Below are positions 43,990 through 57,467 of a stretch of 64,000 bases of DNA, piece after piece. Below the pieces are notes generated by a model. That model was not told where the DNA came from. It made no database searches and worked only from the letters and a program-made list of their open reading frames with translations. The DNA comes from a virus, in IMG/VR virus record IMGVR_UViG_3300035698_011578, positions 1 through 64,000 of that record. One strand, written 5' to 3'. The translations under genes and the position numbers were made by a program. Position 1 is the first letter of the stretch, and each line of letters opens with the position of its first letter.

Positions 43990-44056
43990 GATATTTAAGT
44001 TTTATAAAGATACGGAATATTATTTAATATTCAATAACTTTTGTTAATTTTTGCTT

Positions 44057-45109
44057 TCATAAAGATAAGGAATACACCTCTTCTTTATCTAATATTAGTT
44101 TGAAGTTATACCCGTTCTCTTTGTATGACTTAATTTTATCCAACATATTCTGTTCATCATAAGTCCAAGAACTTTTTATTTCGACTAACTCATTTGTGTC
44201 TACTAAATAAAAGTCTGGTATAGAAGTTCTTTCGGTTTTTATATTTGTGTCGAAATATTGTATTCTTAAACTTTCAACTTCATATTTTATTTTACCATCA
44301 TCTAACAACTTAGCATATTCTAATTCATAAGAACTTCTTAACCAATATTTTTTACCTTCCCAACTAACATGATAGCAAGATTTATATGGATATATCGGTG
44401 TGTCAGAGAATGATTGTCTTCCTTTTTTAATAGCCAATCTACCACTCTCACTATTGTTTCTAGTTTTTATGTTTAGTCGTTTAAATAACATATATACTGT
44501 CTGGTAGTTAATATTATATTTTTCTCCTATTTCAACCATTGAATCAGTTTTATATTCATTTTTCAATTTCATAACTATTCTATAATACTCATCATAAAAA
44601 TATATAGTACCAACTTTTGTTAAATTAAAGCCAAATTTAATGAAGCTTTTTGATCCACCTTTATACCAAAATTTACACATATCTGGGTAAATACATTCTT
44701 CTTGACCACATATTTTGCAAATTTTCTTTTGACATTTACAACATTTACTATTATTTATACTAGCATTTAATTTTATTTTCATATCAACTCCACACTTTTT
44801 ACATTTAGATTGTTTAAAACAATCTCTATTCACAAAACTTTGAGAGTATTTTGATGAACAACTTTTACAACAACATTTCCTATACTTATCTTTATTATAC
44901 ATATTCTCGCTAAGTCCTAATTCATATATTTTATTACAATATAAACATGTAATTTCATAAATTTTACAATTTAACTTTTTTGTTTCACTTCTTTTCTCTT
45001 TTATTTTTAGTTTTTTAGGATTCATATCACAATTTGTGAGATGTGCACCAAATTGTTGATGTTTTACATATTCAATTTCACTATTACAATGTTTACATGT
45101 TTTTTTCAT
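44057..45109 (-). CDS. Cys-rich protein with C-terminal PD-(D/E)xK (TnsA-like) endonuclease; probable homing endonuclease
   Basis: Many CxxC; RSSYE..YE..Y..PDF..VEIKS. Confidence 0.75.
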   Translation of the reverse strand: MKKTCKHCNSEIEYVKHQQFGAHLTNCDMNPKKLKIKEKRSETKKLNCKIYEITCLYCNKIYELGLSENMYNKDKYRKCCCKSCSSKYSQSFVNRDCFKQSKCKKCGVDMKIKLNASINNSKCCKCQKKICKICGQEECIYPDMCKFWYKGGSKSFIKFGFNLTKVGTIYFYDEYYRIVMKLKNEYKTDSMVEIGEKYNINYQTVYMLFKRLNIKTRNNSESGRLAIKKGRQSFSDTPIYPYKSCYHVSWEGKKYWLRSSYELEYAKLLDDGKIKYEVESLRIQYFDTNIKTERTSIPDFYLVDTNELVEIKSSWTYDEQNMLDKIKSYKENGYNFKLILDKEEVYSLSL

Positions 45110-45177
45110 ACTTTATATATTAAAATATCAAAGCGTTAAAATTGAAACGAACCAGTATTTTTCGTTTTAGTTTAGAG

Positions 45178-45248
45178 AGCAGGATACCTTAATCGAAAAG
45201 GCGACTCAATATTGGAAGTATCGTATGTTACCACTACACCAATCCTGC
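45178..45248 (-). tRNA. tRNA-Gly(TCC)
   Basis: GCAGGAT/ATCCTGC acceptor, CGATA-CT TCC AA-TATTG, TTCGATT loop. Confidence 0.9.
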
Positions 45249-45256
45249 ATTTTTTG

Positions 45257-45328
45257 AGCAGTAAGGGAATTATGATATCCCGACCTCGACCTTGGCAAGG
45301 TCGCACTCTTCCTCTGAGCTATTACTGC
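45257..45328 (-). tRNA. tRNA-Gly(GCC), atypical T-loop
   Basis: GCAGTAA/TTACTGC acceptor, CGACC-TT GCC AA-GGTCG, T-loop ATCATAA. Confidence 0.88.
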
Positions 45329-45342
45329 AATTTATTGTGTTA

Positions 45343-45370
45343 TGGCGCAGAGAGGAATCGAACCTCAACA
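45343..45370 (-). pseudogene. tRNA 3'-half remnant
   Basis: GAGG-TTCGATT-CCTC-T-CTGCGCCA with no matching 5' acceptor strand. Confidence 0.55.
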
Positions 45371-45414
45371 CACTCACATTTCTTAGTAGAGAAGTCAAAA
45401 AACGAACCCTCTAG

Positions 45415-45490
45415 TGGAAGCGATGGGAATCGAACCCACCAAACAATCTGGTTGCAAACCAAATTCGCCAGCCTTGGAACATGCGCCCCC
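45415..45490 (-). tRNA. tRNA-Cys(GCA)
   Basis: GGGGGCG/CGCTTCC acceptor, TTTGG-TT GCA A-CCAGA, GGTTCGATTCC. Confidence 0.85.
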
Positions 45491-45500
45491 GTTTTATTAG

Positions 45501-45577
45501 TTGGTGAAGAGGGACTCGAACCCTCATGTGACCAATTACCATTTCAACACGATATAAGCGTGAGTGGATATTCACCA
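45501..45577 (-). tRNA. Non-canonical D-armless tRNA-like gene, anticodon TAT (Ile)
   Basis: TGGTGAA/TTCACCA acceptor, 7-8 nt linker, CACG-CT TAT AT-CGTG, ~21-nt extra region, canonical T-arm. Confidence 0.6.
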
Positions 45578-45579
45578 AT

Positions 45580-45617
45580 AAAAAAAAGCAGTCACTTTTT
45601 GAAAGTGACTGCTTTTT
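45580..45617 (-). terminator. Attenuator terminator upstream of the Ile/Cys/Gly/Gly tRNA operon
   Basis: AAAAAGCAGTCACTTT-CAA-AAAGTGACTGC-TTTTTTTT ending 2 nt before the first tRNA. Confidence 0.85.
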
Positions 45618-45640
45618 AATTTTTTAATATTTCTGAGATA

Positions 45641-45721
45641 TTAAATAACATAATTCAGCCACCCGAAGTTCCCTCCTGCTATACCGTTGCCGTTTGCCGC
45701 TATGTTATTAATTGTTCTCAT
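45641..45721 (-). CDS. Gly-rich attenuator leader peptide MRTINNIAANGNGIAGGNFGWLNYVI
   Basis: 26 codons incl. GGC, GGT, GGA, GGG, GGG; GGGTGGCTG complementary to the terminator 5' arm. Confidence 0.78.
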   Translation of the reverse strand: MRTINNIAANGNGIAGGNFGWLNYVI

Positions 45722-45799
45722 TGTTATAATTTTTCTTTTTACTGTTGTTATATATTAAAGTTTTATTCTCTCTTTTGTTGTTTTTCGTATTATCTTATG

Positions 45800-45831
45800 C
45801 AAATATAAGGCAAAAGTTTTAATTATCCAAA
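45800..45831 (-). promoter_or_regulatory. Bacteroidota-type promoter for the Gly tRNA operon (late TAATATATA box also at ~45749-45758)
   Basis: TTTG 45828-31, 20-nt spacer, TATATTTG 45800-07. Confidence 0.7.
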
Positions 45832-46803
45832 TTTATTTACACTTTTCTTCATAATTTTAAAATAATCTGATATAGTTTTTTCATAACTTTCCCTCTCTTT
45901 GTAATTCTCAACAATATAATTGTAGTTGTCTTTCAATTCTAATACACCGTTAATAACATTATCTATCCTAATACTAGGAACATTTTTCAAGAAACACATC
46001 CTATTAAAATCATTAATCATCACACCATTACCATTAACCAATTCAGGTAATCCACCAGATGATGTGTATAGAATAGGTAACTTACATTTAACTGCTTGAC
46101 AAGTTACTTTAGAACCAGCATCTCTAAAAAATGGTGAGATGAATGCATCACACATACTAATAAGATTACACATCTCTGTCCTATCATCTATATAACCATA
46201 TTTGATTATATTTTCAGGTAGTTCTTCAATATCACACTCACCTATCAGATAAAATAAATCATTGTCAAATATTTTTGACATGGCTATAATAGTTGATAAA
46301 CGTTTACCCTCTCTCTCCCAATTACTACAAGAACTAATCCATTTAAACACCTGATTAGATTCCTTTTTATCCGGATTATAATCTTCAGAATTATTTAATA
46401 TGACAATATCATTATCATATTCTACATCATAAAGTTCTTTAAGTGTGTTCTTTGAATAATTTGATATAAATATAACAAAATCTGATTGATAACCGGCATC
46501 TATATGTAACTTATTTTTATAATCGAATTCTTTTCTCCAATAAATACCATCCATTCTTTTAACTTTGGGTATATTATTCAATTCAGACCACTCTAATACT
46601 TCTTTAGAATAAAATGTGTTTGTTATAATAATATCTGCTAATTTGTAATCAGATACACGATTAAACCCATAATTACCTGCATACCTACACAAGTCGTGCA
46701 TTATATCATTTTCTTTAGGCCCGAAAGATTTGACACTATGAAGTGTATTACTTACTCTATTATTTGAGCAATCATAATAATTTTTAAGCATTTCTCTTTT
46801 CAT
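45823..46803 (-). CDS. Glycosyltransferase family 4 (GT-B)
   Basis: RMDG, IFISNYSK, K R, CDAFI, GSKV..QA..C.LPIL...GGLPELV. Confidence 0.85.
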   Translation of the reverse strand: MKREMLKNYYDCSNNRVSNTLHSVKSFGPKENDIMHDLCRYAGNYGFNRVSDYKLADIIITNTFYSKEVLEWSELNNIPKVKRMDGIYWRKEFDYKNKLHIDAGYQSDFVIFISNYSKNTLKELYDVEYDNDIVILNNSEDYNPDKKESNQVFKWISSCSNWEREGKRLSTIIAMSKIFDNDLFYLIGECDIEELPENIIKYGYIDDRTEMCNLISMCDAFISPFFRDAGSKVTCQAVKCKLPILYTSSGGLPELVNGNGVMINDFNRMCFLKNVPSIRIDNVINGVLELKDNYNYIVENYKERESYEKTISDYFKIMKKSVNKFG

Positions 46804-47557
46804 TTACCCACCAATCTGTTTTAATTTTCAACATAGTATCATCATCTTCGAAGTGTAATATCCAACCTTCTTTATTCTCTACATCCTTCTTCAATTCCAA
46901 TATATCAGTTAATGAGTATGAATATTCATTAACAATTGGAACCTCATCTATATCTTTAATATCTAAGTACTTACCAGTTTTATTACATCTCAATTTAAGA
47001 AGAACCATATCCTCATAATCATACTCAACATATAATTTCTCACCTATTAATTCGAATATTGGTTGTTTATTTTGTAATAAGCAAGATTCTATAAATTTAT
47101 AATATTTAGGATTTTCTAAATATTTATTACCAGAAACATTTGTTTTAGTATAGAATCCCTTTTTTGTCTGTGATGTAATACTACCATCAGGTAACATGAT
47201 GAAAGTTAATAAGAAACCATCTAACTTTTCAGTTATATTTTTAATTGGTTTATCTATAAATTTATCCAGTACACAATGTTTATATTGATCTAATTCCCAG
47301 AATTTGCTTAACATTAAATTTCTACGAAATAAAGAACCATCATCATTAAATGTGAAGGATAGCCCTTTTAGTTCAAGTGCATTAATATTTGGTTTATCTA
47401 TAATAGGTAATTTGAAATTATTATAAGTGGCATGTCTATAACCGAATATAGATAAATCATAACTATTTATTATGAAATTACTTTCATAGAAATACATCTT
47501 AGGATTAGATTCAATTATTTCTAAACATTCTGTATATTCTGGTAGGTAAAAACTCAT
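46784..47557 (-). CDS. RNA ligase 1 (T4 Rnl1-like)
   Basis: ELKGL, KFW, EKLDG, FEL, EGW, LKIKTDWW. Confidence 0.8.
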   Translation of the reverse strand: MSFYLPEYTECLEIIESNPKMYFYESNFIINSYDLSIFGYRHATYNNFKLPIIDKPNINALELKGLSFTFNDDGSLFRRNLMLSKFWELDQYKHCVLDKFIDKPIKNITEKLDGFLLTFIMLPDGSITSQTKKGFYTKTNVSGNKYLENPKYYKFIESCLLQNKQPIFELIGEKLYVEYDYEDMVLLKLRCNKTGKYLDIKDIDEVPIVNEYSYSLTDILELKKDVENKEGWILHFEDDDTMLKIKTDWWVNEKRNA

Positions 47558-47593
47558 TTATATTTTATTGATAAAAACTAAATTTGTTTACTA

Positions 47594-49057
47594 CTAAAAG
47601 TTGTAACCACCATAATTATCATCTGATATCTCGTCCTGACTATAGTATTCATTCGATCCTATACCTCTACTTAAATCATATAACTCGGTTATACTTAAAC
47701 CATAATTACCAAGATATTGATTTAATTCTTTTTCACCAATATAAGAATCATTTCTTCTGTGTGCCGTATTATATCTACCGCCATCATAAATTGTTAAACC
47801 AATTTTTCCCTCTACTGATGTTGCTGGCATTTCAGCATTAATTATTACTAATTGTATATTGTCATTACCAATATAATCCATCCAATATGATAGACTGTCT
47901 TTTATACACCAACTTGTATCACCTGCGAAATTAGATAGTGATTCATAAGAAAGAACTCTAACTACAATTAATTCACCGTCATCAAATACTAATTTTAACT
48001 GAGAATCATTATTGATGGTTGATCTAAGATTTTCTACTCCGGTATCACTAAATACAAATGATATTAATGAATCTATTAAGTCCTGTTGTGTTTTATATCT
48101 AGATACTTTTTTTAACCAAAACTTACTATAAAGTGCTAATTTTTCTTCATCATCTACTAAGGTCTTAATAGCTTCGATAAAATCTTCTTTTTTATTTAAC
48201 CCTCTTTTAATAGAACCAGGGTATTCATCTGAGAATATTTTAGCCATCTGTGCTTCTTCAATTATTGTTAAATCATCAGATAATTTCTCAAAATGTGTTG
48301 AATATGTCCTACCATCTTTAGCCGTGAATGATTGCTTTGTTCTGGACCTAGTCATATAATTAACTACACTGGTTTCTAATCTATCCAAGATATCATCATT
48401 ACTTTGTATGCGTTTATATAAATTCTTTATTCTCTGAAAAGGGATTTCCTCTATTTTATTAAAAAATGTAAATACACCTAAATATCCAGGATTATCTCTT
48501 AATAGATTTCTTAATCTAATATAAGTCTTATCAGTCTCATCCTCTTTTAAATGTCTTAAAATACGTCTAGCCTGATCTCTATTTTCATAAACATATGATT
48601 TATAATCACTTATCGTGAAATTCTCATTTATGAATTTTCTTACTCTTCCAAGCAATAGAAATTTATTATCCTCTAATAAAATATCACATTCCTTATCCAG
48701 TTGTTCTCTAGTCATTGAGTAATATGAACTAGGCATATCATATTTAAAGTTTAATTGCTCCTTAATATCATTTAACATATGATTATAAGTACGTTCTCTT
48801 TTTGGGTTACCATTTATTAGATTTCTAACAAAATTACCAAACCTATTATCACCCAATTCTAGGAATGCTTCATACACTAATTTTAAAAGATTATTAGATG
48901 AATATACTTCACTATTATCTAGGATAAAGTCATTTAATTCAAATACTACCTCATCTGTTATATTCAATTTTCTATATCTTTTTTCTAATAAAGAAGCCAA
49001 TGGTTTATTATTAGAGTAACATTCATCTATTTTCAATTTTAATAATTCTTCGTACAT
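47594..49057 (-). CDS. Hypothetical protein with TSWCI (PcfJ-like) C-terminal motif
   Basis: Likely start MYEELL at 49057. Confidence 0.65.
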   Translation of the reverse strand: MYEELLKLKIDECYSNNKPLASLLEKRYRKLNITDEVVFELNDFILDNSEVYSSNNLLKLVYEAFLELGDNRFGNFVRNLINGNPKRERTYNHMLNDIKEQLNFKYDMPSSYYSMTREQLDKECDILLEDNKFLLLGRVRKFINENFTISDYKSYVYENRDQARRILRHLKEDETDKTYIRLRNLLRDNPGYLGVFTFFNKIEEIPFQRIKNLYKRIQSNDDILDRLETSVVNYMTRSRTKQSFTAKDGRTYSTHFEKLSDDLTIIEEAQMAKIFSDEYPGSIKRGLNKKEDFIEAIKTLVDDEEKLALYSKFWLKKVSRYKTQQDLIDSLISFVFSDTGVENLRSTINNDSQLKLVFDDGELIVVRVLSYESLSNFAGDTSWCIKDSLSYWMDYIGNDNIQLVIINAEMPATSVEGKIGLTIYDGGRYNTAHRRNDSYIGEKELNQYLGNYGLSITELYDLSRGIGSNEYYSQDEISDDNYGGYNF

Positions 49058-49106
49058 AAAACAAAATTTATATTTAATACTATATATTAAAAAACAATTC
49101 CAAAAA

Positions 49107-49505
49107 ATGGATACGCTAATAAATGAACTGATTATTGATAAATATTTTGGCATCTATAATAGAAATGGATTTGAATATATTGTAAATAAAAACGAGAATA
49201 AAGATTTCAAGATTTATCTATTAGACTTTAATAGTGTTAAGAAAATGAATATTGAACTTGGTTATCTCTCCGTGAATAATATATTCAAGAATGCGTTATC
49301 TGAGTTAAAGAATGATTATACAATAGGTCGTGCTTTCTCCGGTGATGAGATATTTTTCCTAACTGAAAGATTAGATGATGATATAAATAAAATTGAAACC
49401 ATTTGTAATAAAAATGGATTATATTTTGAATACATTGAATTTATTAATGATGGCGAAGATGAGTTGGAGGTTCTTTTAGAAAAAATGATAGACGATTTTA
49501 AATGA
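49107..49505 (+). CDS. Standalone GGDEF-like domain protein
   Basis: D..FGIYNR, LLDFNSVKKMNIELGY, GRAFSGDEI. Confidence 0.7.
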   Translation: MDTLINELIIDKYFGIYNRNGFEYIVNKNENKDFKIYLLDFNSVKKMNIELGYLSVNNIFKNALSELKNDYTIGRAFSGDEIFFLTERLDDDINKIETICNKNGLYFEYIEFINDGEDELEVLLEKMIDDFK

Positions 49506-50131
49506 TAGACAAATTAGAAAATATTGGATTTTATACTCTATATAATGATAGAGCTAAAAATGTATCAGAATCATCACAGATGAAAAGATGCGAAATGATA
49601 ATTACTGAATACTGTAATTTTAATTGCCCGTATTGTCGTGGATTATCGGAAGAGGTTTACGGTGATCGCAAATTCAAACAATTATCATTAGATGAGATTA
49701 AGAAAAATATAGATTATTGGTGTGAGAATACCCCACTTGAGAATATAAGATTTTCTGGCGGTGAACCAACAATGCATAAAGATTTGAAAGAAATAGTAGA
49801 ATATGCAAAAGAAAGTGGTATAGAAAGAATAGCCGTATCAACAAATGGTTCTAAAGATTATGAGTTATATGATGAACTAATTGAAGCAGGTGTTAATGAT
49901 TTTTCAATATCATTAGATGCTTGTTGTGCCGAAGATGGTGATAAACTAGCTGGTGATAAAAAGGGCTCGTGGGAAATAGTAGTTGAAAATATTAGAAAAT
50001 TATCAAGTAGAACTTATGTTACTGTTGGTGTAGTATTATCACCTGAAAATGTAGATAAAACTTTAGAAACTATTAGATTTGCACACGACTTAGGTGTTTC
50101 TGATATAAGAATAATATCAGTGGCACAGTAA
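49502..50131 (+). CDS. Radical SAM protein, N-terminal part
   Basis: CNFNCPYC, FSGGEPT, STNG, ISLD; ends abruptly IRIISVAQ*. Confidence 0.88.
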   Translation: MIDKLENIGFYTLYNDRAKNVSESSQMKRCEMIITEYCNFNCPYCRGLSEEVYGDRKFKQLSLDEIKKNIDYWCENTPLENIRFSGGEPTMHKDLKEIVEYAKESGIERIAVSTNGSKDYELYDELIEAGVNDFSISLDACCAEDGDKLAGDKKGSWEIVVENIRKLSSRTYVTVGVVLSPENVDKTLETIRFAHDLGVSDIRIISVAQ

Positions 50132-50163
50132 CTTTTTTAATATATAAAATAAAAAGTTTTAAA

Positions 50164-51018
50164 ATGTTAGAGAGTAAATTAGGTATTTATGCTATAATCA
50201 ATATTATAAATGGTAAAAAATATATCGGTGGTACATCAAATTTAAGAATTAGAAAAAGCGCACATTTCAGAGAATTATCAAAAGGTATACATCATTGTAA
50301 TCATTTACAAAAATCATATAATAAATATGGTGTTGATAATTTCAAATGGGTAATAATTGAATATCTTGAAGAATATGAGAATAGAGAGGTTTTGAAAAAA
50401 AATCTTTTAGAAAAAGAACAACATTGGATCGATAAGCATATCAATGATAAAGAGCTATTATATAATACTTGTTTGGTGGCTGGTAGTTGTTTAGGTATTA
50501 AATTAAGTAATGTTCATAAAAGAAAAATTAGTGAAGCCATGATGGGTGAAAATAACCCATGTTATGGTAAGAAATATACTGATGAGGAGAAGGAAATATT
50601 AAGACAATATTCTTTAAATATGTCTGATGAAGCTAGACAAAAAATAAGCGAATCTAGTAAAGGAAATAAATATAGACTTGGTTCAAAACACTCAGAAGAA
50701 ACTAAAAAAAAGATAAGTGAGTCAAATAAAGGCAAACATGGTGGTAAGAGATCAGAAGAAACTAAGAAAAAAATTAGCGAAGCCAGTAAAGGTAGAATTT
50801 TTTCAGAAGAAACTCTTAAAAAGAAAAGCGATTCAATGAAAGGTAAAAACACAGATCCAGATAAAGTTAGAGCAAATAAAACATTTAAGAAACTGAAAAA
50901 AATATTTAAAACTGAAAAATGTATTACACAAAAAGATTTAACCAAAGCTTCTGGTATGTCACTATCAACAATTAAAAAATACTGGAAGCATATTAAAAAC
51001 AATGAAATTAATTATTAA
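50164..51018 (+). CDS. GIY-YIG homing endonuclease with NUMOD3-type repeats
   Basis: GIYAIIN..NGKKYIG, R...H, LQ...NKYG, EQ, YN; HSEETKKKISE repeats. Confidence 0.92.
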   Translation: MLESKLGIYAIINIINGKKYIGGTSNLRIRKSAHFRELSKGIHHCNHLQKSYNKYGVDNFKWVIIEYLEEYENREVLKKNLLEKEQHWIDKHINDKELLYNTCLVAGSCLGIKLSNVHKRKISEAMMGENNPCYGKKYTDEEKEILRQYSLNMSDEARQKISESSKGNKYRLGSKHSEETKKKISESNKGKHGGKRSEETKKKISEASKGRIFSEETLKKKSDSMKGKNTDPDKVRANKTFKKLKKIFKTEKCITQKDLTKASGMSLSTIKKYWKHIKNNEINY

Positions 51019-51021
51019 ATT

Positions 51022-51411
51022 ATGGAAAAAGAACAAATTGAAGAAATAATGAGGGTGAAAATATCTCAAATTGAACAAGAAATATTAGATGCACACCCAA
51101 TATTGGCTTATCGGGTTAAAAATATATTAGAAGGTAAATCAGTTAGAGGTATACAAGATGATGATTCTGAAAAATGTACTTTAGTTTTAGATGATAGTGT
51201 AATCGCAGGTGATTATCATTACCCATGTGTTATTTATATGAGAGAAGGTGGAGAACCAATTGGTAAGGTTAGTGGTGATATGAGAGAAGAAAGAGCTGAG
51301 TGGTTTAACAATCATAACACACATATAGATAAAATCTGTAGTAAAAACTGCTTAGATATCTGCATAGATTATAACAACAAATGCGAATCATATAAAAATG
51401 AGACTATTTAA
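51022..51411 (+). CDS. Radical SAM protein, C-terminal Cys-rich (SPASM/twitch-like) part
   Basis: C..LVLDD..YPC..PIG ... ICSKNCLDIC..YN. Confidence 0.7.
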   Translation: MEKEQIEEIMRVKISQIEQEILDAHPILAYRVKNILEGKSVRGIQDDDSEKCTLVLDDSVIAGDYHYPCVIYMREGGEPIGKVSGDMREERAEWFNNHNTHIDKICSKNCLDICIDYNNKCESYKNETI

Positions 51412-51832
51412 AAAGGAGTGTGAGAGAAAATTTCTTGTAAAAGAATTACCAAGTGATTTCAATGATTATGATAAAGAAGATGTCCATCAATACTATCCGA
51501 TTGTAAGTAAATATTTCTGCGTTAGAGTAAGGAAGTATAGCGAGACCAGAAAGTATTTGGATATCAAATTTGGATCAGGTAAAATAAAATTTAAGATTGG
51601 GTTAAGAATTAATTTTTTTCAGACAAATAAAAAGTGCCTAGTTAAAACCAGACACAAAAAGAGATTTAATAATCTATTAATAGTAATTGATATTTTCGAA
51701 AGTGAGTTAAGATTAGTTGAGATAGAATCCTCTGATTGTTCAATAATAGATAATTATAAACTACCAGAATGGTTTGGAGAAGAAGTAACTAATGATAAAA
51801 AATATAGAAACCGATATTTAATCAAAAAGTAG
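51398..51832 (+). CDS. CYTH domain protein
   Basis: ECERKFLV, RVR, K, KTR, IDIF, VEIE, PEWFGEEVT.D..Y.N. Confidence 0.85.
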   Translation: MRLFKKECERKFLVKELPSDFNDYDKEDVHQYYPIVSKYFCVRVRKYSETRKYLDIKFGSGKIKFKIGLRINFFQTNKKCLVKTRHKKRFNNLLIVIDIFESELRLVEIESSDCSIIDNYKLPEWFGEEVTNDKKYRNRYLIKK

Positions 51833-52540
51833 TTTTGCAATATCTTCGCCTAGTAATCTTTCTAACAACTCATCGATGTCAGTTGACATATCATTATCAT
51901 ACCTAAATAGATATAAAGAATCCTCTATACCATCTAAATTTAATTTGAAAATATAATAGAGAAATATATTTTGTGACATTAAAACAATTTCCGGATTAGT
52001 TTTCAATACCGTTTTATAATCAGAACCAAATATATCTTTAGTGTATATCTCTGGATAAAAATCACGCATTATGTAATTGTAAATATTACTACCAACTAAT
52101 AATTCTGTTTCTCCGAATAGTTTTGTTAGTTTTTCTATTCTAGAAACAACATTAATAACATTGCCTAAGTATGTGAATGTTCTACCATCTCGTAACATCT
52201 CTATTGTTTCACCACAATCGACACCAATACCAAATGAAATTTTCTCATCAAATTCTGCATTGAATTCATTAACCATTTTTGTTAACTTTTTATGTAGTAA
52301 GATTGAGAATGCATAAGCATGTTTTGAATGATTAAGACCTTTAAATAGAAATACCATAGAATCACCTAAAGAATTGTACCAGTAATCTTTTGATATTTTA
52401 CTAGCAATACTAATGTGTGCTTCATAAAAATCACTTATGAAATTTATAAAAGAATCATTATCCTTTTCTTGAAATCTCTCAAATGTTCCTGTGAAATTTC
52501 TGATATCTGATATCACTATGGCTGATTTAATTTTCTTCAT
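51818..52540 (-). CDS. Class III adenylate/guanylate cyclase domain protein
   Basis: SDIRNFT, LGDS, GIGV..G, YLGNVINVVSRIE. Confidence 0.85.
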   Translation of the reverse strand: MKKIKSAIVISDIRNFTGTFERFQEKDNDSFINFISDFYEAHISIASKISKDYWYNSLGDSMVFLFKGLNHSKHAYAFSILLHKKLTKMVNEFNAEFDEKISFGIGVDCGETIEMLRDGRTFTYLGNVINVVSRIEKLTKLFGETELLVGSNIYNYIMRDFYPEIYTKDIFGSDYKTVLKTNPEIVLMSQNIFLYYIFKLNLDGIEDSLYLFRYDNDMSTDIDELLERLLGEDIAKLLFD

Positions 52541-52630
52541 CTATATTATAATTTTAACTATATGCAAATATACTAAAAATTTCAATTACATATCAATTTT
52601 TAGTATATTATTTTTAGTTTATTATGTTTG

Positions 52631-52711
52631 TGGGTAAAGAGAGATTCGAACTCACAAACCCGAAGGCCACGGGGTTACAACCCGCTAGGCAACCAACTGC
52701 CCAATTTACCC
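52631..52711 (-). tRNA. tRNA-Tyr(GTA) copy 2
   Basis: GGGTAAA/TTTACCC, GCGGG-TT GTA AC-CCCGT, long variable arm. Confidence 0.88.
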
Positions 52712-52720
52712 AATTTTGAG

Positions 52721-52788
52721 AAGCACATAGGGGAATCGAACCCCCGTTTACTGAAAATCTGTCGTCCTAACCACTAGACGAATGCGCC
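52721..52788 (-). tRNA. tRNA-Glu(TTC), apparently damaged (about 4-nt deletion in the 3' anticodon stem)
   Basis: GGCGCAT/ATGTGCT, GTCTAGTGGTTAGGAC D-arm, ACAGA-TT TTC A-GT. Confidence 0.75.
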
Positions 52789-52795
52789 ATTTTTG

Positions 52796-52878
52796 TGGGC
52801 CGGGAGGGATTCGAACCCCCGAACTCGAAAGAGAGATGTTTTACAGACACCGTGCTTTAACCTCTTGCATACCGACCC
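52796..52878 (-). tRNA. tRNA-Tyr(GTA) copy 1
   Basis: GGGTCGG/CCGGCCC, GGTGT-CT GTA AA-ACATC, long variable arm. Confidence 0.92.
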
Positions 52879-52891
52879 AGTTTTTTATAAC

Positions 52892-52929
52892 AAAAAAAAC
52901 CAATCTAACATTTATGTCAGATTGGTTTT
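52892..52929 (-). terminator. Attenuator terminator upstream of the Tyr/Glu/Tyr tRNA operon
   Basis: AAAACCAATCTGACA-TAAA-TGTTAGATTGG-TTTTTTTT. Confidence 0.85.
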
Positions 52930-52953
52930 AAATTTCTATATAATTAAACACAG

Positions 52954-53019
52954 CTATCTATCTGACAAAATTTTCATTTTCTCTTCATAATAATAAGCTA
53001 TGTTTGTTATTGTTGTCAT
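52954..53019 (-). CDS. Tyr/Glu attenuator leader peptide MTTITNIAYYYEEKMKILSDR
   Basis: TAT TAT TAT GAA GAG at codons 9-13; TGTCAGAT complementary to the terminator 5' arm. Confidence 0.82.
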   Translation of the reverse strand: MTTITNIAYYYEEKMKILSDR

Positions 53020-53060
53020 TGTCTTTATTGTTTCTTTATTGTTTCTTTCTAATTCTTTTA

Positions 53061-53092
53061 CAAATATAAGGAAGATATTTTAAACCACCAAA
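53061..53092 (-). promoter_or_regulatory. Bacteroidota-type promoter for the Tyr/Glu tRNA operon
   Basis: TTTG 53089-92, 20-nt spacer, TATATTTG 53061-68. Confidence 0.72.
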
Positions 53093-53114
53093 TATATTTT
53101 CATTTTTCTTTTTG

Positions 53115-53186
53115 TAGCGGGGACAGGACTCGAACCTGCGACCTCCGGGTTATGAGCCCGACGAGCTGCCTCTGCTCTACCCCGCA
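53115..53186 (-). tRNA. Initiator tRNA-fMet(CAT)
   Basis: 1:72 mismatch, TCGGG-CT CAT AA-CCCGG (three G-C pairs); late TAATATATA box directly upstream. Confidence 0.92.
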
Positions 53187-53254
53187 ATATTGTATTTCTA
53201 TATATTAAAAAGTTGGTCTCCCTTTTACAAAAGTAGTAAAAATTTATGAGAATA

Positions 53255-53491
53255 TCAAACATTATTATATGCCCTCAGTGTAAATGGGAAATCAAATACG
53301 ATAAATCCACCTGTTATTTCATCTTTTATGTCCAAATCATCATTAGCAAGTTTTGACATGTCACATCTTGTAAACGACTCAGCATCTTTATAAAGATAAT
53401 TATATGTTGATATATTTTCAATACCCACAAAATCTTTTATTCTATAAATTATATCAGATATTTCACTGAAATAATAAGGTTCAGAATACAA
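53255..53491 (-). pseudogene. Probable 3' gene remnant
   Basis: TTG-started ORF with disrupted upstream sequence. Confidence 0.4.
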
Positions 53492-53635
53492 TAAGAATGG
53501 AAGGATTATCTAAAGATATAGAAAAGAATTCCATCTCACAAAGAACTAGATTATATGTTCGCTATTTAAGTAGAAATCCAATACCTAATTTTAAATTAGA
53601 GACCAATAGCAACACAATAAAATTAATTAAAAATA

Positions 53636-53986
53636 ATGACTATTAAAAAATTTGACGCATTTAGCGATTCTGATATAGAGACAATAAAAGATATTATCTT
53701 AGAACTAAAACATGAATTTACAGAAATTGATGGTGAGATTTATAATAAAAAATATGACCGTGGTAATGTAACAATCATCGAATTATCTCCAATGAAAGTT
53801 TACAATGAGAAATGTGTTACAATTGAAAATCTAGAAAAGAAGATGAAATATTATAACCTAATTATAGAAGTAGCAACAAGAATTAAAGATGCAACGAAAA
53901 GAGACGTTAGAATAGTTGATTTATTTAATGAGAAGTTGGGTAGTGTTGAAATATGGATAGATGACATTAAAAACAAAACAAAATAA
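53636..53986 (+). CDS. Hypothetical protein
   Basis: MTIKKFDAF N-terminus. Confidence 0.65.
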   Translation: MTIKKFDAFSDSDIETIKDIILELKHEFTEIDGEIYNKKYDRGNVTIIELSPMKVYNEKCVTIENLEKKMKYYNLIIEVATRIKDATKRDVRIVDLFNEKLGSVEIWIDDIKNKTK

Positions 53987-54521
53987 TAATATGGAAAGAC
54001 CACAGATTAGACAAACGTTTTGTTAGTGATAATTATGATTTAGATTTGTATTTTTTATATAATTTAAAAAATTCTTCATCATTCATACTAGAAAATTCTT
54101 CATCTGCTTTATTCTTCATATCTTGAGCATCCCAAAGTGATGGTTTTAAATGTTTTGTATCAAAAGATGTTTCAACACCATAATCTATTAATTCACATCG
54201 AAGTTTAAACATAATCCATTCAAAATCATGACTATCTTTTGAGTTTTTCTACTAATATATTCATATTCCATTGGTAAATCATAACTATCACTAACATCAG
54301 ATATATTCAAGTTTTCTTTGAACTCACCGAAACCTTTTATGTGTCTTTCATTTTCCATCTTCGTTTATTATTTTAGTATATATATTATATTTATAAGTTA
54401 AATATTATTCACCTTTAAAATTTCTAAAATTTTACACTTTTTGAATATTACACAAGTTTCTGTTTAATATATATTAGTAAATTATAAATAATAATATGGA
54501 AAGACCACAGATTAGACAAAC
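53981..54521. mobile_element. Insertion flanked by 36-bp direct repeats, containing a 276-bp segment with 22-bp inverted repeats
   Basis: DR 53981-54016 = 54486-54521; IR 54021-54042 / 54275-54296 (21/22). Confidence 0.7.
54033..54358 (-). pseudogene. Frameshifted gene MENERHIKGFGEFKENLNISDVS...
   Basis: Frame break near 54240; other frame KDSHDFEWIMFKLRCEL... to TAA at 54033. Confidence 0.65.
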
Positions 54522-54852
54522 AGAACAACAACATGTTGAGAGTGAACGAGAAATCGTTGGTTCGGAAGCAGAAGAATTATTGCGTAAATATGGTTATTCC
54601 GAAGAATTTACAACTAGAGCAAATCCAACCAAAGAAGAAAGCAATCCTATAACATTTGAAGAAATGGTTAAACAGGAAGAAGCTAAAAAGAAAGCGTTAA
54701 GAGATCGAAGAAACCAGAAAATGAATGGCCCAAAACCAATAACATTTAGAGGTGATGAATATGATTCAAAAGTTACTTATGGATCAGATGAGGAATCAGG
54801 ATTAGGATTCAAAATAGAAATAACTTCTGATATGAAGTTGCCGAAATATTAA
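54496..54852 (+). CDS. Hypothetical protein
   Basis: ORF after TAATATATA. Confidence 0.7.
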   Translation: MERPQIRQTEQQHVESEREIVGSEAEELLRKYGYSEEFTTRANPTKEESNPITFEEMVKQEEAKKKALRDRRNQKMNGPKPITFRGDEYDSKVTYGSDEESGLGFKIEITSDMKLPKY

Positions 54853-54944
54853 CAATTTTTTAAACTTATAACTTAATACAATTATAATTCATAACGATTA
54901 AAAATAGCGAGATAGGCTATTTCAAAAAATAATTATTCATATAT

Positions 54945-57467
54945 ATGATTACTAGCGAAATAAATAGTGACAAGAAACAAACAGACTTTAAAAATGAATT
55001 TAGTAAAGAAATTTATGAACAAACATACAGATTTGGGAAAGAAAATATAAATAACACACTTTACAGAATTGCAAACGAATTGGCTTCAGTCGAAACCGAT
55101 AAAAAATCTTGGACAGAAAACTTTTTAGATCTTTTAACAGATTTTAAATTTGTACCAGGTGGTAGAATTATATCAAATGCCGGTGTTCCATTAAGAGGAA
55201 CTAGTATGATAAATTGCTTCGTCGATGGTTTTAAAGGAGGAGACCAAGACTCAATGGAAAGCATAATGGACACATTAAGGAGACAAGCGATGATACTTAA
55301 ATCTGAAGGTGGTTATGGCTTTTGTGCAGATGTTATGAGACCAAGAGGTAGTTTCATTAGAGGTATCGGAAATGAATCACCAGGATCAGTTAAAATGCTT
55401 GATATGTGGGACACACAATCCGCAGTTATTACTGAAGGAAGTGGTAAGAAGAGTGATAGAAAAGATGGTAAAGTTAAAATTCGTAAAGGTGCACAAATGG
55501 TGACTATGAGTTGCTGGCATCCCGATATTGAAGAATTTATAACTGCTAAACAAACACCAGGTAGATTGACAAAATTTAACATGTCTATTCTAGCATCTGA
55601 TGAATTGATGAAGTGTGTTGAAAATAACTCACCATGGAATCTCGAATTCCCTGATTATGACACATTCCCAAATGAATATAAAGAAGAGTGGAATGGTAAT
55701 ATTGCCGAGTGGAAAGAAAAAGGTTATACTACAATAGTCTATAAAACATTCGAAGATGCTAATGAACTATGGGATGTTATTATGATGTCTACATATAATA
55801 GAAATGAACCAGGTGTTTTATTCATAGATACAATCAACAAGCTAAACAATCTTAAATATTGTGAGTTCATCAACGCTACAAACCCTTGTGGGGAACAGGT
55901 ATTACCAATTGGTGGTGTTTGCTTATTAGGTTCTATTAACTTAACACAATTTATTGATTTTAAAAATCAAAACTGGGATTATACTAAATTGAAAAAATAT
56001 ATTCCAAGTATTGTTAGATTGATGGATAATGTTAATGATAAAACTTATGTACCACTTGATTATCAAAGAGAAAATCTAGTTGATAAACGTAGAATTGGTT
56101 TAGGTATGATGGGATATGGTTCTGCATTGATGATGTTAAAACTAAAATATGGTTCAAAAGAAGCACTTAAATTAACAGAAGAGTTAATGAGTTTTATCGC
56201 AAATAATGCTTATTCTGCTTCAGCAATGTTAGCAAAAGAAAAAGGGAAATTTAGATTATATGAGGAAAGCGAATACTTAAATTCTAACTTTATCAAACAA
56301 GCACTGACAAAGGAGACGATAGAATTAATTAAAGAACATGGTATTAGAAATTCACATCTATTATCTATACAACCTACTGGAAATAGTTCAATATTTGCAA
56401 ACAATGTATCAGGTGGACTAGAACCATTATTTATGCCAGAATATATAAGAACTTCTATTATGCCTTATTCACCAGAAGGATTAGAAATTCCTAAGAATAT
56501 TGACTGGGATAATAAATCTTATGTTTCAATGACTAACTGGGAGTGGATAAGAGAAGGTGATGAACCATTACTCGCAACTACATTTGATAATTATAGATGG
56601 AAGTTTGATAAGAATAGAGGATTATTAAGAGAAACACTAGTTGAGGATTATGCAGTTTCTTTCTTAAAAGAAAAAGATGAGTGGGATGCTGGTGCTGATT
56701 GGGCTGCAACTACTACAACTTTAAATATTAATGAACACATTGATACAATGGCAGTTATTGCTAAATATATTGACTCTGCGATTTCTAAAACAGTAAATTT
56801 ACCAAATGAATATTCTTACGAAGATTTTAAAGACCTTTATAAGAAATTACACGATACTAAAACTATTAAAGGTGGTACAACTTATAGAGCAGGTACAATG
56901 ACTTCTGTATTATCCGGAAAAGATAAAGAAGAAAAGAGTGAAAACACACTTGCTAAAACAGAAGCACCTAGAAGACCAAAGGTTTTAAACTGTGACATTC
57001 ATCACGTTACTGTACAAGGTGATAAGTGGACTGTTATTATTGGATTATTTGGTGATAATAAAGATCCTTATGAAGTATTTGCTTTCAAAAAGAAGAGCAT
57101 TAGTATTTCTGCCTCAATAAAAGAAGGACAATTAACGAAAGTTAAGAAAGGAAGATATGATTTAGATTTAAATGGTGTTGTTATTGAAAATATCAAAGAA
57201 CACTTTACATCTGATGAAGAAGAAGCTCTAACTAGAATGATATCTACTGCATTACGACATGGTGCTAATATCAATTTTATATATGACCAGTTACAAAAAT
57301 CAGAGGGTAATATTGTATCATTCTCAAAAGCGGTATCAAGAACCTTGAAGAAATATTTAAGTGATGATAAAACAGAGGATTGTCCTAGTTGTAAAGCTGA
57401 TAAAGCACTAGTATTACAAGAAGGGTGTTTTGTCTGTAAACATTGTGGATACAGTAAATGTTCTTAA
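54945..57467 (+). CDS. nrdJ: Ribonucleotide reductase, probably class II (B12-dependent), with C-terminal TSCPD/Zn-ribbon
   Basis: PGGRI, NCF, HPDI, EPG, TNPCGEQ, CLLGSINL, QPTG, ISKTVN, CPSC..EGC..C..CGYSKC. Confidence 0.88.
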   Translation: MITSEINSDKKQTDFKNEFSKEIYEQTYRFGKENINNTLYRIANELASVETDKKSWTENFLDLLTDFKFVPGGRIISNAGVPLRGTSMINCFVDGFKGGDQDSMESIMDTLRRQAMILKSEGGYGFCADVMRPRGSFIRGIGNESPGSVKMLDMWDTQSAVITEGSGKKSDRKDGKVKIRKGAQMVTMSCWHPDIEEFITAKQTPGRLTKFNMSILASDELMKCVENNSPWNLEFPDYDTFPNEYKEEWNGNIAEWKEKGYTTIVYKTFEDANELWDVIMMSTYNRNEPGVLFIDTINKLNNLKYCEFINATNPCGEQVLPIGGVCLLGSINLTQFIDFKNQNWDYTKLKKYIPSIVRLMDNVNDKTYVPLDYQRENLVDKRRIGLGMMGYGSALMMLKLKYGSKEALKLTEELMSFIANNAYSASAMLAKEKGKFRLYEESEYLNSNFIKQALTKETIELIKEHGIRNSHLLSIQPTGNSSIFANNVSGGLEPLFMPEYIRTSIMPYSPEGLEIPKNIDWDNKSYVSMTNWEWIREGDEPLLATTFDNYRWKFDKNRGLLRETLVEDYAVSFLKEKDEWDAGADWAATTTTLNINEHIDTMAVIAKYIDSAISKTVNLPNEYSYEDFKDLYKKLHDTKTIKGGTTYRAGTMTSVLSGKDKEEKSENTLAKTEAPRRPKVLNCDIHHVTVQGDKWTVIIGLFGDNKDPYEVFAFKKKSISISASIKEGQLTKVKKGRYDLDLNGVVIENIKEHFTSDEEEALTRMISTALRHGANINFIYDQLQKSEGNIVSFSKAVSRTLKKYLSDDKTEDCPSCKADKALVLQEGCFVCKHCGYSKCS

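Follow-up and report, generated by a model that had tools for sequence, protein, structure and literature searches.

We have identified, in DNA of a huge phage, what is very likely a ribosome-mediated (leader-peptide) transcription attenuator that controls tRNA genes. At this locus, termed unit 1, a 21-codon leader ORF with consecutive Tyr and Glu codons and an intrinsic terminator lie between a promoter and an array of tRNA-Tyr genes. Unit 1 is predicted to belong to a modular family in which the same promoter and leader scaffold carry differing control codons and stems, and which would govern most elongator tRNA arrays of the clade. As the circuit would make the very tRNA that it senses, it would constitute negative feedback on tRNA supply, and each tRNA set is probably made only when ribosomes read its codons slowly.

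The window analyzed here is a stretch of 64,000 nucleotides that forms the first 64 kb of a 95,476-bp IMG/VR virus record (28.7% G+C). The record is a fragment of a huge phage, based upon a CheckV completeness of 13%. Salt-lake metagenomes contain its DNA, and contigs of four salt-lake DNA runs confirm the window sequence; no RNA runs containing window positions 50500-55500 were listed in the search. Neighbors of unit 1 encode a ribonucleotide reductase, a radical-SAM protein, a Pfam-confirmed GIY-YIG/NUMOD3 homing endonuclease (50164-51018, plus strand) and, immediately 3' of the Tyr array, a class III cyclase-like protein of 240 aa whose adenylate/guanylate cyclase domain is weak (51818-52540, minus strand; Pfam E 2.5e-5).

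Read along the minus strand from 53259 to 52630, the region consists of a promoter and TTTAATATATA box, a tRNA-Met gene, a second promoter, the leader ORF, the terminator, a tRNA-Tyr gene, a tRNA-Glu-like gene and a further tRNA-Tyr gene. The tRNA-Met(CAT) gene (53186-53114), which is directly upstream of unit 1 and was absent from the preliminary description of this DNA, was called by ARAGORN and Rfam (61 bits) and is of the initiator type, with a GGG/CCC anticodon stem in the alignment. A motif search located its own promoter at 53259-53228 and the TTTAATATATA box at 53209-53199. It has neither a leader ORF nor a terminator, and the initiator tRNA of the 634-kb uncultured phage LR745206.1 likewise has a promoter without a leader. 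Stalling during elongation cannot sense an initiator tRNA, and the lack of a leader at this gene thus counts in favor of an attenuator.

The second promoter, placed at 53061-53092 of the minus strand by the preliminary description, is indeed of Bacteroidota type, with TTTG at 53092-53089, a spacer of 20 nt and TATATTTG at 53068-53061. This promoter pattern occurs seven times in the window versus 2.5 expected, and the unit 1 copy is paralogous to the promoters of units 2-4 described below. The leader ORF was also recovered as previously proposed, with an ATG start and a TAG stop (53019-52954, minus strand) and with the control codons TAT TAT TAT GAA GAG (YYYEE) at 52995-52981. Its N-terminal scaffold, M-x-T-I-x-N-I-A, is common to the leaders of unit 1, unit 2 and the LR745206.1 orthologue. 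In order to judge its codon content, all ATG-started ORFs of 15-45 codons in the 95-kb record (n = 553) were used as a background set, in which YYYEE is the sole window with five of five Tyr/Glu codons; for Tyr alone the figure is 15/553.

An intrinsic terminator had been claimed between the leader and the tRNAs, and one was found at 52929-52886 of the minus strand. It comprises a 15-bp stem (5' arm 52929-52915, 3' arm 52910-52896) closed by a TAAA loop (52914-52911) and followed by an 8-T run, has a minimum free energy of -20.9 kcal/mol, and is stronger than the three other terminator-like sites within 6 kb; 94.5% of its cells are paired in orthologues. The antiterminator strand (region 2; 52968-52959, minus strand) falls within the last five codons of the leader. 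Its core, TGTCAGAT (52967-52960), is the exact 8-nt complement of ATCTGACA (52922-52915) in the terminator 5' arm and begins 13 nt past the GAG codon, in agreement with the preliminary description. The resulting duplex of 8-9 bp has an energy of -10.5 kcal/mol, which is equalled by 0.5-1% of shuffled leaders (p 0.005-0.01). A further hairpin of -15.2 kcal/mol is predicted over nt 15-74 of the ORF and may be an upstream 1:2 pause or anti-antiterminator hairpin.

Two tRNA-Tyr(GTA) genes, both called by ARAGORN and Rfam, follow on the minus strand at 52878-52795 and 52711-52630, as expected from the earlier reading of the array as tRNA-Tyr/Glu/Tyr. The first begins only 17 nt past the terminator stem, too close for a promoter to fit in between, and the tRNAs should thus depend on readthrough. 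An intact tRNA-Glu is not present. The gene between the two (52788-52721, minus strand) derives from a tRNA-Glu(TTC) and, when aligned to the intact orthologues of three relatives, lacks 4 nt of the 3' anticodon stem; it scores 45 bits in the Rfam tRNA model, but ARAGORN rejects it. Judged from this deletion, it is probably a pseudogene and dead in this record. The same sequence occurs in contigs of three salt-lake runs, although these runs may not be independent of the source. Since this gene is defective, the two Glu codons of the leader may sense a tRNA that the array no longer supplies, and their retention suggests that the array decayed faster than the sensor.

Stop-codon recoding, by which the TAG-terminated leader would be extended into the terminator, was considered and rejected, as code 11 gives a coding coverage of 83% and the gains from recoding are small. 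Stops between long same-frame ORFs of the record are 1 TAG and 2 TGA versus 12 TAA. The standard code applies, and the TAG stop of the unit 1 leader is therefore real. A tRNA with anticodon CTA, which reads TAG, was observed in a related 508-kb phage (IMG/VR record G002, L024 at about 1631); stop-codon recoding may thus exist in part of the clade, and is not evident in the record studied here.

It is hypothesized that transcripts either begin at the TTTG/TAnnTTTG promoter or extend from the promoter of tRNA-fMet by readthrough, and that a ribosome translates the 21-codon leader. When the Tyr and Glu codons are decoded fast, the ribosome would reach the stop codon and cover TGTCAGAT, the terminator hairpin would form, and RNA polymerase would halt 17 nt before the first tRNA-Tyr gene. 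When Tyr or Glu tRNA is short, the ribosome would stall at YYYEE and leave TGTCAGAT free to pair with the terminator 5' arm as soon as this is made, so that no terminator forms and the tRNA genes are transcribed. Leader translation, coupling of transcription and translation, readthrough caused by stalling and the physiological trigger are all inferred, as there are no expression, ribosome or termination data.

The promoter region of unit 1 matches DNA upstream of the other tRNA cluster of the window, where the same layout was found. In this unit 2, also on the minus strand, a promoter (45831-45800) and a TTTAATATATA box (45759-45749) are followed by a 26-codon leader ORF (45721-45641), which has the M-x-T-I-x-N-I-A opening and the core AANGNGIAGG, with three Ala and four Gly codons and a fifth Gly codon (GGG) three codons later; it ranks first of the 553 short ORFs for Ala/Gly. 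Its antiterminator strand, CGGGTGGCTGA (45665-45655), pairs with the 5' arm of the intrinsic terminator (45617-45575) in a duplex of -12.4 kcal/mol that includes two G-U pairs (shuffle p 0.003). The array (45488-45177) comprises tRNA-Ala(TGC), a tRNA-like remnant, tRNA-Gly(GCC) and tRNA-Gly(TCC), and an atypical tRNA-like gene lies ahead of it at about 45585-45500. The tRNA-like sequences at 45585-45500 and 45410-45345 (minus strand) have good T arms and acceptor ends and were not called by ARAGORN or Rfam; alignment of both to the tRNAs of relatives yielded no assignment. The former has TAT in a loop position, and the orthologous slot in LR745206.1 is a tRNA-Ile(TAT).

Two more units lie beyond the window behind promoters near-identical to those of units 1-2. 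The leader of unit 3 (record positions 66087-66197) contains N, L, T, V, C and R codons, with eight Asn, and its array encodes two Asn, three Leu, two Arg, two Val, one Cys and two Thr tRNAs. The leader of unit 4 (record 74786-74884) has the core QPQVDQDP and precedes three Asp, two Gln and two Pro tRNAs. Each leader of the record is top or near the top among the 553 short ORFs for the amino acids of its own array, and this enrichment of control codons is limited to the reading frame of the ORF. An 8-bp hairpin, AATATTAC/GTAATATT, is located within the leader ORF of the Asn family, immediately ahead of the antiterminator (record 66138-66158, plus strand), and its sequence is conserved in the orthologues L009, L020, L021, L026, L027 and L029; it is a candidate polymerase pause hairpin, its function being inferred.

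Several other features were noted on the plus strand of the record beyond the window. Two homing-endonuclease-like ORFs are found inside or just ahead of tRNA arrays (66544-67243 and about 75006-75690), one of them between the unit 4 terminator and the unit 4 tRNAs; their HNH-like Cys/His motifs were read by eye without a Pfam search. A tRNA-Asp with the unusual anticodon ATC (A34) sits between copies of tRNA-Asp(GTC) at 75899-75970. A further tRNA unit, at 88361-88700, has only a promoter and neither a leader nor a terminator ahead of its tRNAs. These include a tRNA-Ser(GCT), in which an intron of 25 nt is predicted, and a Glu-like tRNA whose anticodon loop is abnormal.

The TTTAATATATA box is found 16 times in the window versus 1.2 expected, for example at 53199-53209 and 45749-45759 (minus strand) and at 50136-50146 (plus strand). 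There are 33 copies of its shorter form, TTAATATATA, in the record, of which 29 precede the start codon (ATG) of a real ORF by 4-29 nt, and a further one precedes tRNA-fMet by 12 nt. The box probably serves as a promoter or gene-start signal specific to the phage, and may give rise to near-leaderless mRNAs. The leaders of units 2-4 start 5-27 nt behind TTAATATATA, the same distances as at the 29 real genes, and the shared box and spacing suggest that these leaders would be expressed like genes.

The match between leader codons and tRNA arrays was surveyed in seven records, namely the record containing the window, LR745206.1 and five IMG/VR records of 152-508 kb. An exact IMG/VR search with the shared 20-nt promoter block gave no matches, and the IMG/VR relatives were retrieved with a conserved segment of the Asn-family leader. 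Units were called automatically in all seven records by seeking a strong terminator followed by tRNAs and then an ORF upstream of the terminator. This yielded 33 leader-terminator-tRNA units, all with leader ORFs of 16-43 codons. The leaders fall into families for Tyr/Glu; Ile/Gly/Ala; Asn/Leu/Thr/Val/Cys/Arg/Met; Asp/Pro/Gln; Gln; His/Lys/Phe/Trp; and Ser/Arg. The leader HK.FSKS.KWF precedes a His/Phe/Trp/Lys array, SKSSSRSSS precedes an Arg/Ser array, and QQIQQQQ precedes three tRNA-Gln genes, Gln having been split off with its own leader in some genomes. In G002, the Tyr/Glu and Ile/Gly/Ala arrays are fused (three Glu, two Tyr, three Gly, one Ile and two Ala) behind a single leader with the core IYIGYIAEGGYEAG. 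Up to about eight isotypes are matched by one leader, and nearly all elongator isotypes are covered in the clade.

When arrays were permuted among leaders within genomes, the observed match sum of 10.93 (versus 5.61 ± 0.62) was reached by none of 20,000 permutations (z 8.5), and in the record of the window alone the observed pairing of leaders with arrays ranks 1 of 24. Covariation of leader codons with downstream anticodons, a test named beforehand in the preliminary description, is thus positive in the paralogues of the same genome and in six other huge phages. The seven genomes are related and the 33 units are not 33 independent events, so the pooled test overstates independence. With the same pipeline, the region of 105-154 kb of the Lak-B1 megaphage (MK250020.1) was found to have dispersed tRNAs and no codon-matched leaders, which indicates that the pipeline does not create matches by itself and that the design is not universal in Bacteroidota megaphages. 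In leader alignments, conservation is confined to the RNA-pairing segments and to the composition of the control segment and does not extend to peptide order, as expected if selection acts on codon content and not on the peptide; synonymous versus non-synonymous counts (256 versus 890) were uninformative.

In predicted full-length folds of the four units of the record, the terminator is the global minimum-energy fold. In folds mimicking a stalled ribosome, with the control codons covered and the 3' arm not yet made, the 3' segment of the leader pairs with the terminator 5' arm in 4/4 units, with energies of -14.0, -14.6 to -17.8, -20.3 and -10.2 kcal/mol. A ribosome footprint on the stop codon is predicted to leave the terminator 5' arm of unit 1 free, and these in silico folds agree with the claim that a ribosome at the stop would cover the antiterminator and one at YYYEE would not. 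As the unit 1 antiterminator (-10.5 kcal/mol) is weaker than the terminator (-20.9 kcal/mol), the former must win kinetically. Across the survey, an antiterminator duplex at shuffle p <= 0.05 is present in 16/33 units, versus 1.7 expected.

Units 3 and 4 have a looser geometry. The unit 3 antiterminator is 20 nt before the stop codon and can still fold around a ribosome parked at the stop, and that of unit 4 is weak (shuffle p 0.8). This looseness would suit a translated leader that senses decoding speed and acts on precursor processing, decay or Rho access instead of termination. We regard such an output as quite improbable, since in every unit a strong intrinsic terminator, complete with T run, sits precisely between leader and tRNAs, and leader segments are complementary to the terminator 5' arm well beyond chance.

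The pairings behind attenuation by termination also covary. The unit 1 antiterminator pairing is kept in 4/4 orthologues with one compensatory pair, and one change involves all three strands, CAGAT/ATCTG/AGATT in the window versus CAGAC/GTCTG/AGACT in LR745206.1. In the Asn family, the arm CCCAGAT and leader segment ATCTGGG of G002 are replaced by CCCTCAG and CTGAGGG in the others. Pairing in the four Tyr/Glu orthologues is 95-97%, versus 5-52% in slid controls; these are too few sequences for significance against shuffle controls, and with such small orthologue sets the covariation counts of the Tyr/Glu family are not significant alone.

These data bear on whether there is regulation at all. 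Short ORFs are common in AT-rich DNA, as the 553 of 15-45 codons in 95 kb attest, and the unit 1 antiterminator is only 8-9 bp, so the locus might be read as a constitutive terminator or insulator after tRNA-fMet with a chance short ORF, the tRNAs arising from leaky readthrough. That reading has been largely refuted and is now scarcely tenable: the codon-to-array match recurs in 33 units and was equalled in 0/20,000 permutations, the leader ORF is conserved, three strands covary, and YYYEE is unique among background ORFs.

A regulated locus could still dispense with the ribosome. Codons cognate to the controlled tRNAs sit just upstream of the antiterminator, and the codon run might bind the anticodons of uncharged tRNAs directly, in the manner of a T-box, and thereby stabilize the antiterminator. 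In an Rfam cmscan of 44000-55000 (E <= 1), tRNAs and sub-threshold noise were the only hits, with no T-box, leader family or riboswitch, and no Stem I or T-box sequence is present. The control triplets are always in frame within ATG-to-stop ORFs of 16-43 codons and absent from other frames, and up to eight isotypes would have to be sensed per leader. Direct tRNA binding is therefore hardly credible.

The element instead works like the Trp, His, Thr and Leu leaders but is not a sequence member of these families, as it has no Rfam match. Attenuators of trp/his-type geometry usually precede amino-acid biosynthesis or synthetase genes. The proposal that unit 1 has this geometry holds at the level of sequence, where leader ORF, control codons, terminator and antiterminator are all present; translation of the leader is inferred. 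Enterobacterial leaders include trpL, hisL, pheL and leuL as well as the multivalent thrL (Thr and Ile) and ilvL (Ile, Leu and Val). As in thrL and ilvL, the phage units combine a short codon-rich leader, an intrinsic terminator and a mutually exclusive antiterminator set by ribosome position, and one leader senses several amino acids. They differ in that they regulate tRNAs and not biosynthetic enzymes, so that the output is the sensed molecule, in sensing up to about eight isotypes, in their Bacteroidota-type promoters and in having no sequence similarity. The cellular, single-specificity attenuator of E. coli pheST (pheM leader) acts on an aminoacyl-tRNA synthetase; it is similarly a leader-peptide attenuator of a translation-apparatus gene keyed to amino-acid codons, whereas the phage units control tRNA genes and not a synthetase. 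T-box riboswitches share a terminator/antiterminator switch that reports tRNA status through a codon-like specifier, but they bind uncharged tRNA directly without a ribosome and regulate synthetase, biosynthesis and transport genes.

To our knowledge, the textbook cases of leader-peptide attenuation concern amino-acid biosynthesis and a small number of synthetase genes and do not include tRNA genes, and a full-text literature search did not find leader-peptide control of tRNA genes. The nearest published case of regulated accessory tRNA arrays is the trn operon of Anabaena, a silent array of 26 tRNA genes that is induced under translational stress (PMC8421152, PMC10272220). It resembles the phage units in that an accessory tRNA array is kept off and turned on when translation is impaired. 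Unlike the phage units, it uses a protein repressor, TrcR, and no leader; these reports mention no leader, attenuator or terminator (PMC8421152, PMC10272220).

The selected role of the attenuator is less certain than its mechanism. Conjectural triggers are tRNA demand, starvation and host defences that cut tRNAs, the last two having been proposed in the preliminary description. A switch of this layout would react to decodable tRNA being lost for whatever reason, and infection is known to be rescued by phage tRNAs when a defence cleaves tRNAs, as with PARIS AriB (PMC12409363). The same attenuator might accordingly have been selected for counter-defence, to provide replacement tRNAs when an anticodon nuclease or tRNA-targeting immunity depletes host tRNA-Tyr/Glu. 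We consider this role unlikely, though it remains a possibility: the sequence gives no hint of defence, no gene for defence or anti-defence was linked to the units, and the inclusion of nearly every elongator isotype in the clade agrees with general control of supply in a genome of 29% GC. This near-complete coverage points to general control of tRNA supply and away from an answer specific to Tyr/Glu. A combined proposal, which we advance only tentatively and with more doubt than conviction, is that the leaders are genome-wide, modular, closed-loop tRNA gauges, such that a given block of phage tRNA genes would be transcribed solely when ribosomes stall through lack of the very tRNAs it encodes, and also an inducible answer to defences that cut or deplete tRNAs, replacing only those destroyed.

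For an attenuator that controls tRNA supply, what is sensed (the capacity to decode particular codons) coincides with what is made (the tRNAs doing that decoding), which would allow direct feedback. If confirmed, this would account for the way in which large phages control their tRNA arsenals, and would offer compact natural switches that are codon-specific and can be re-programmed, their leaders sensing up to about eight isotypes. The leaders would further give a readout, from sequence only, of the tRNAs that a phage treats as limiting, and the long-standing question of why phages carry tRNAs, whether for codon demand or for counter-defence, would become testable.
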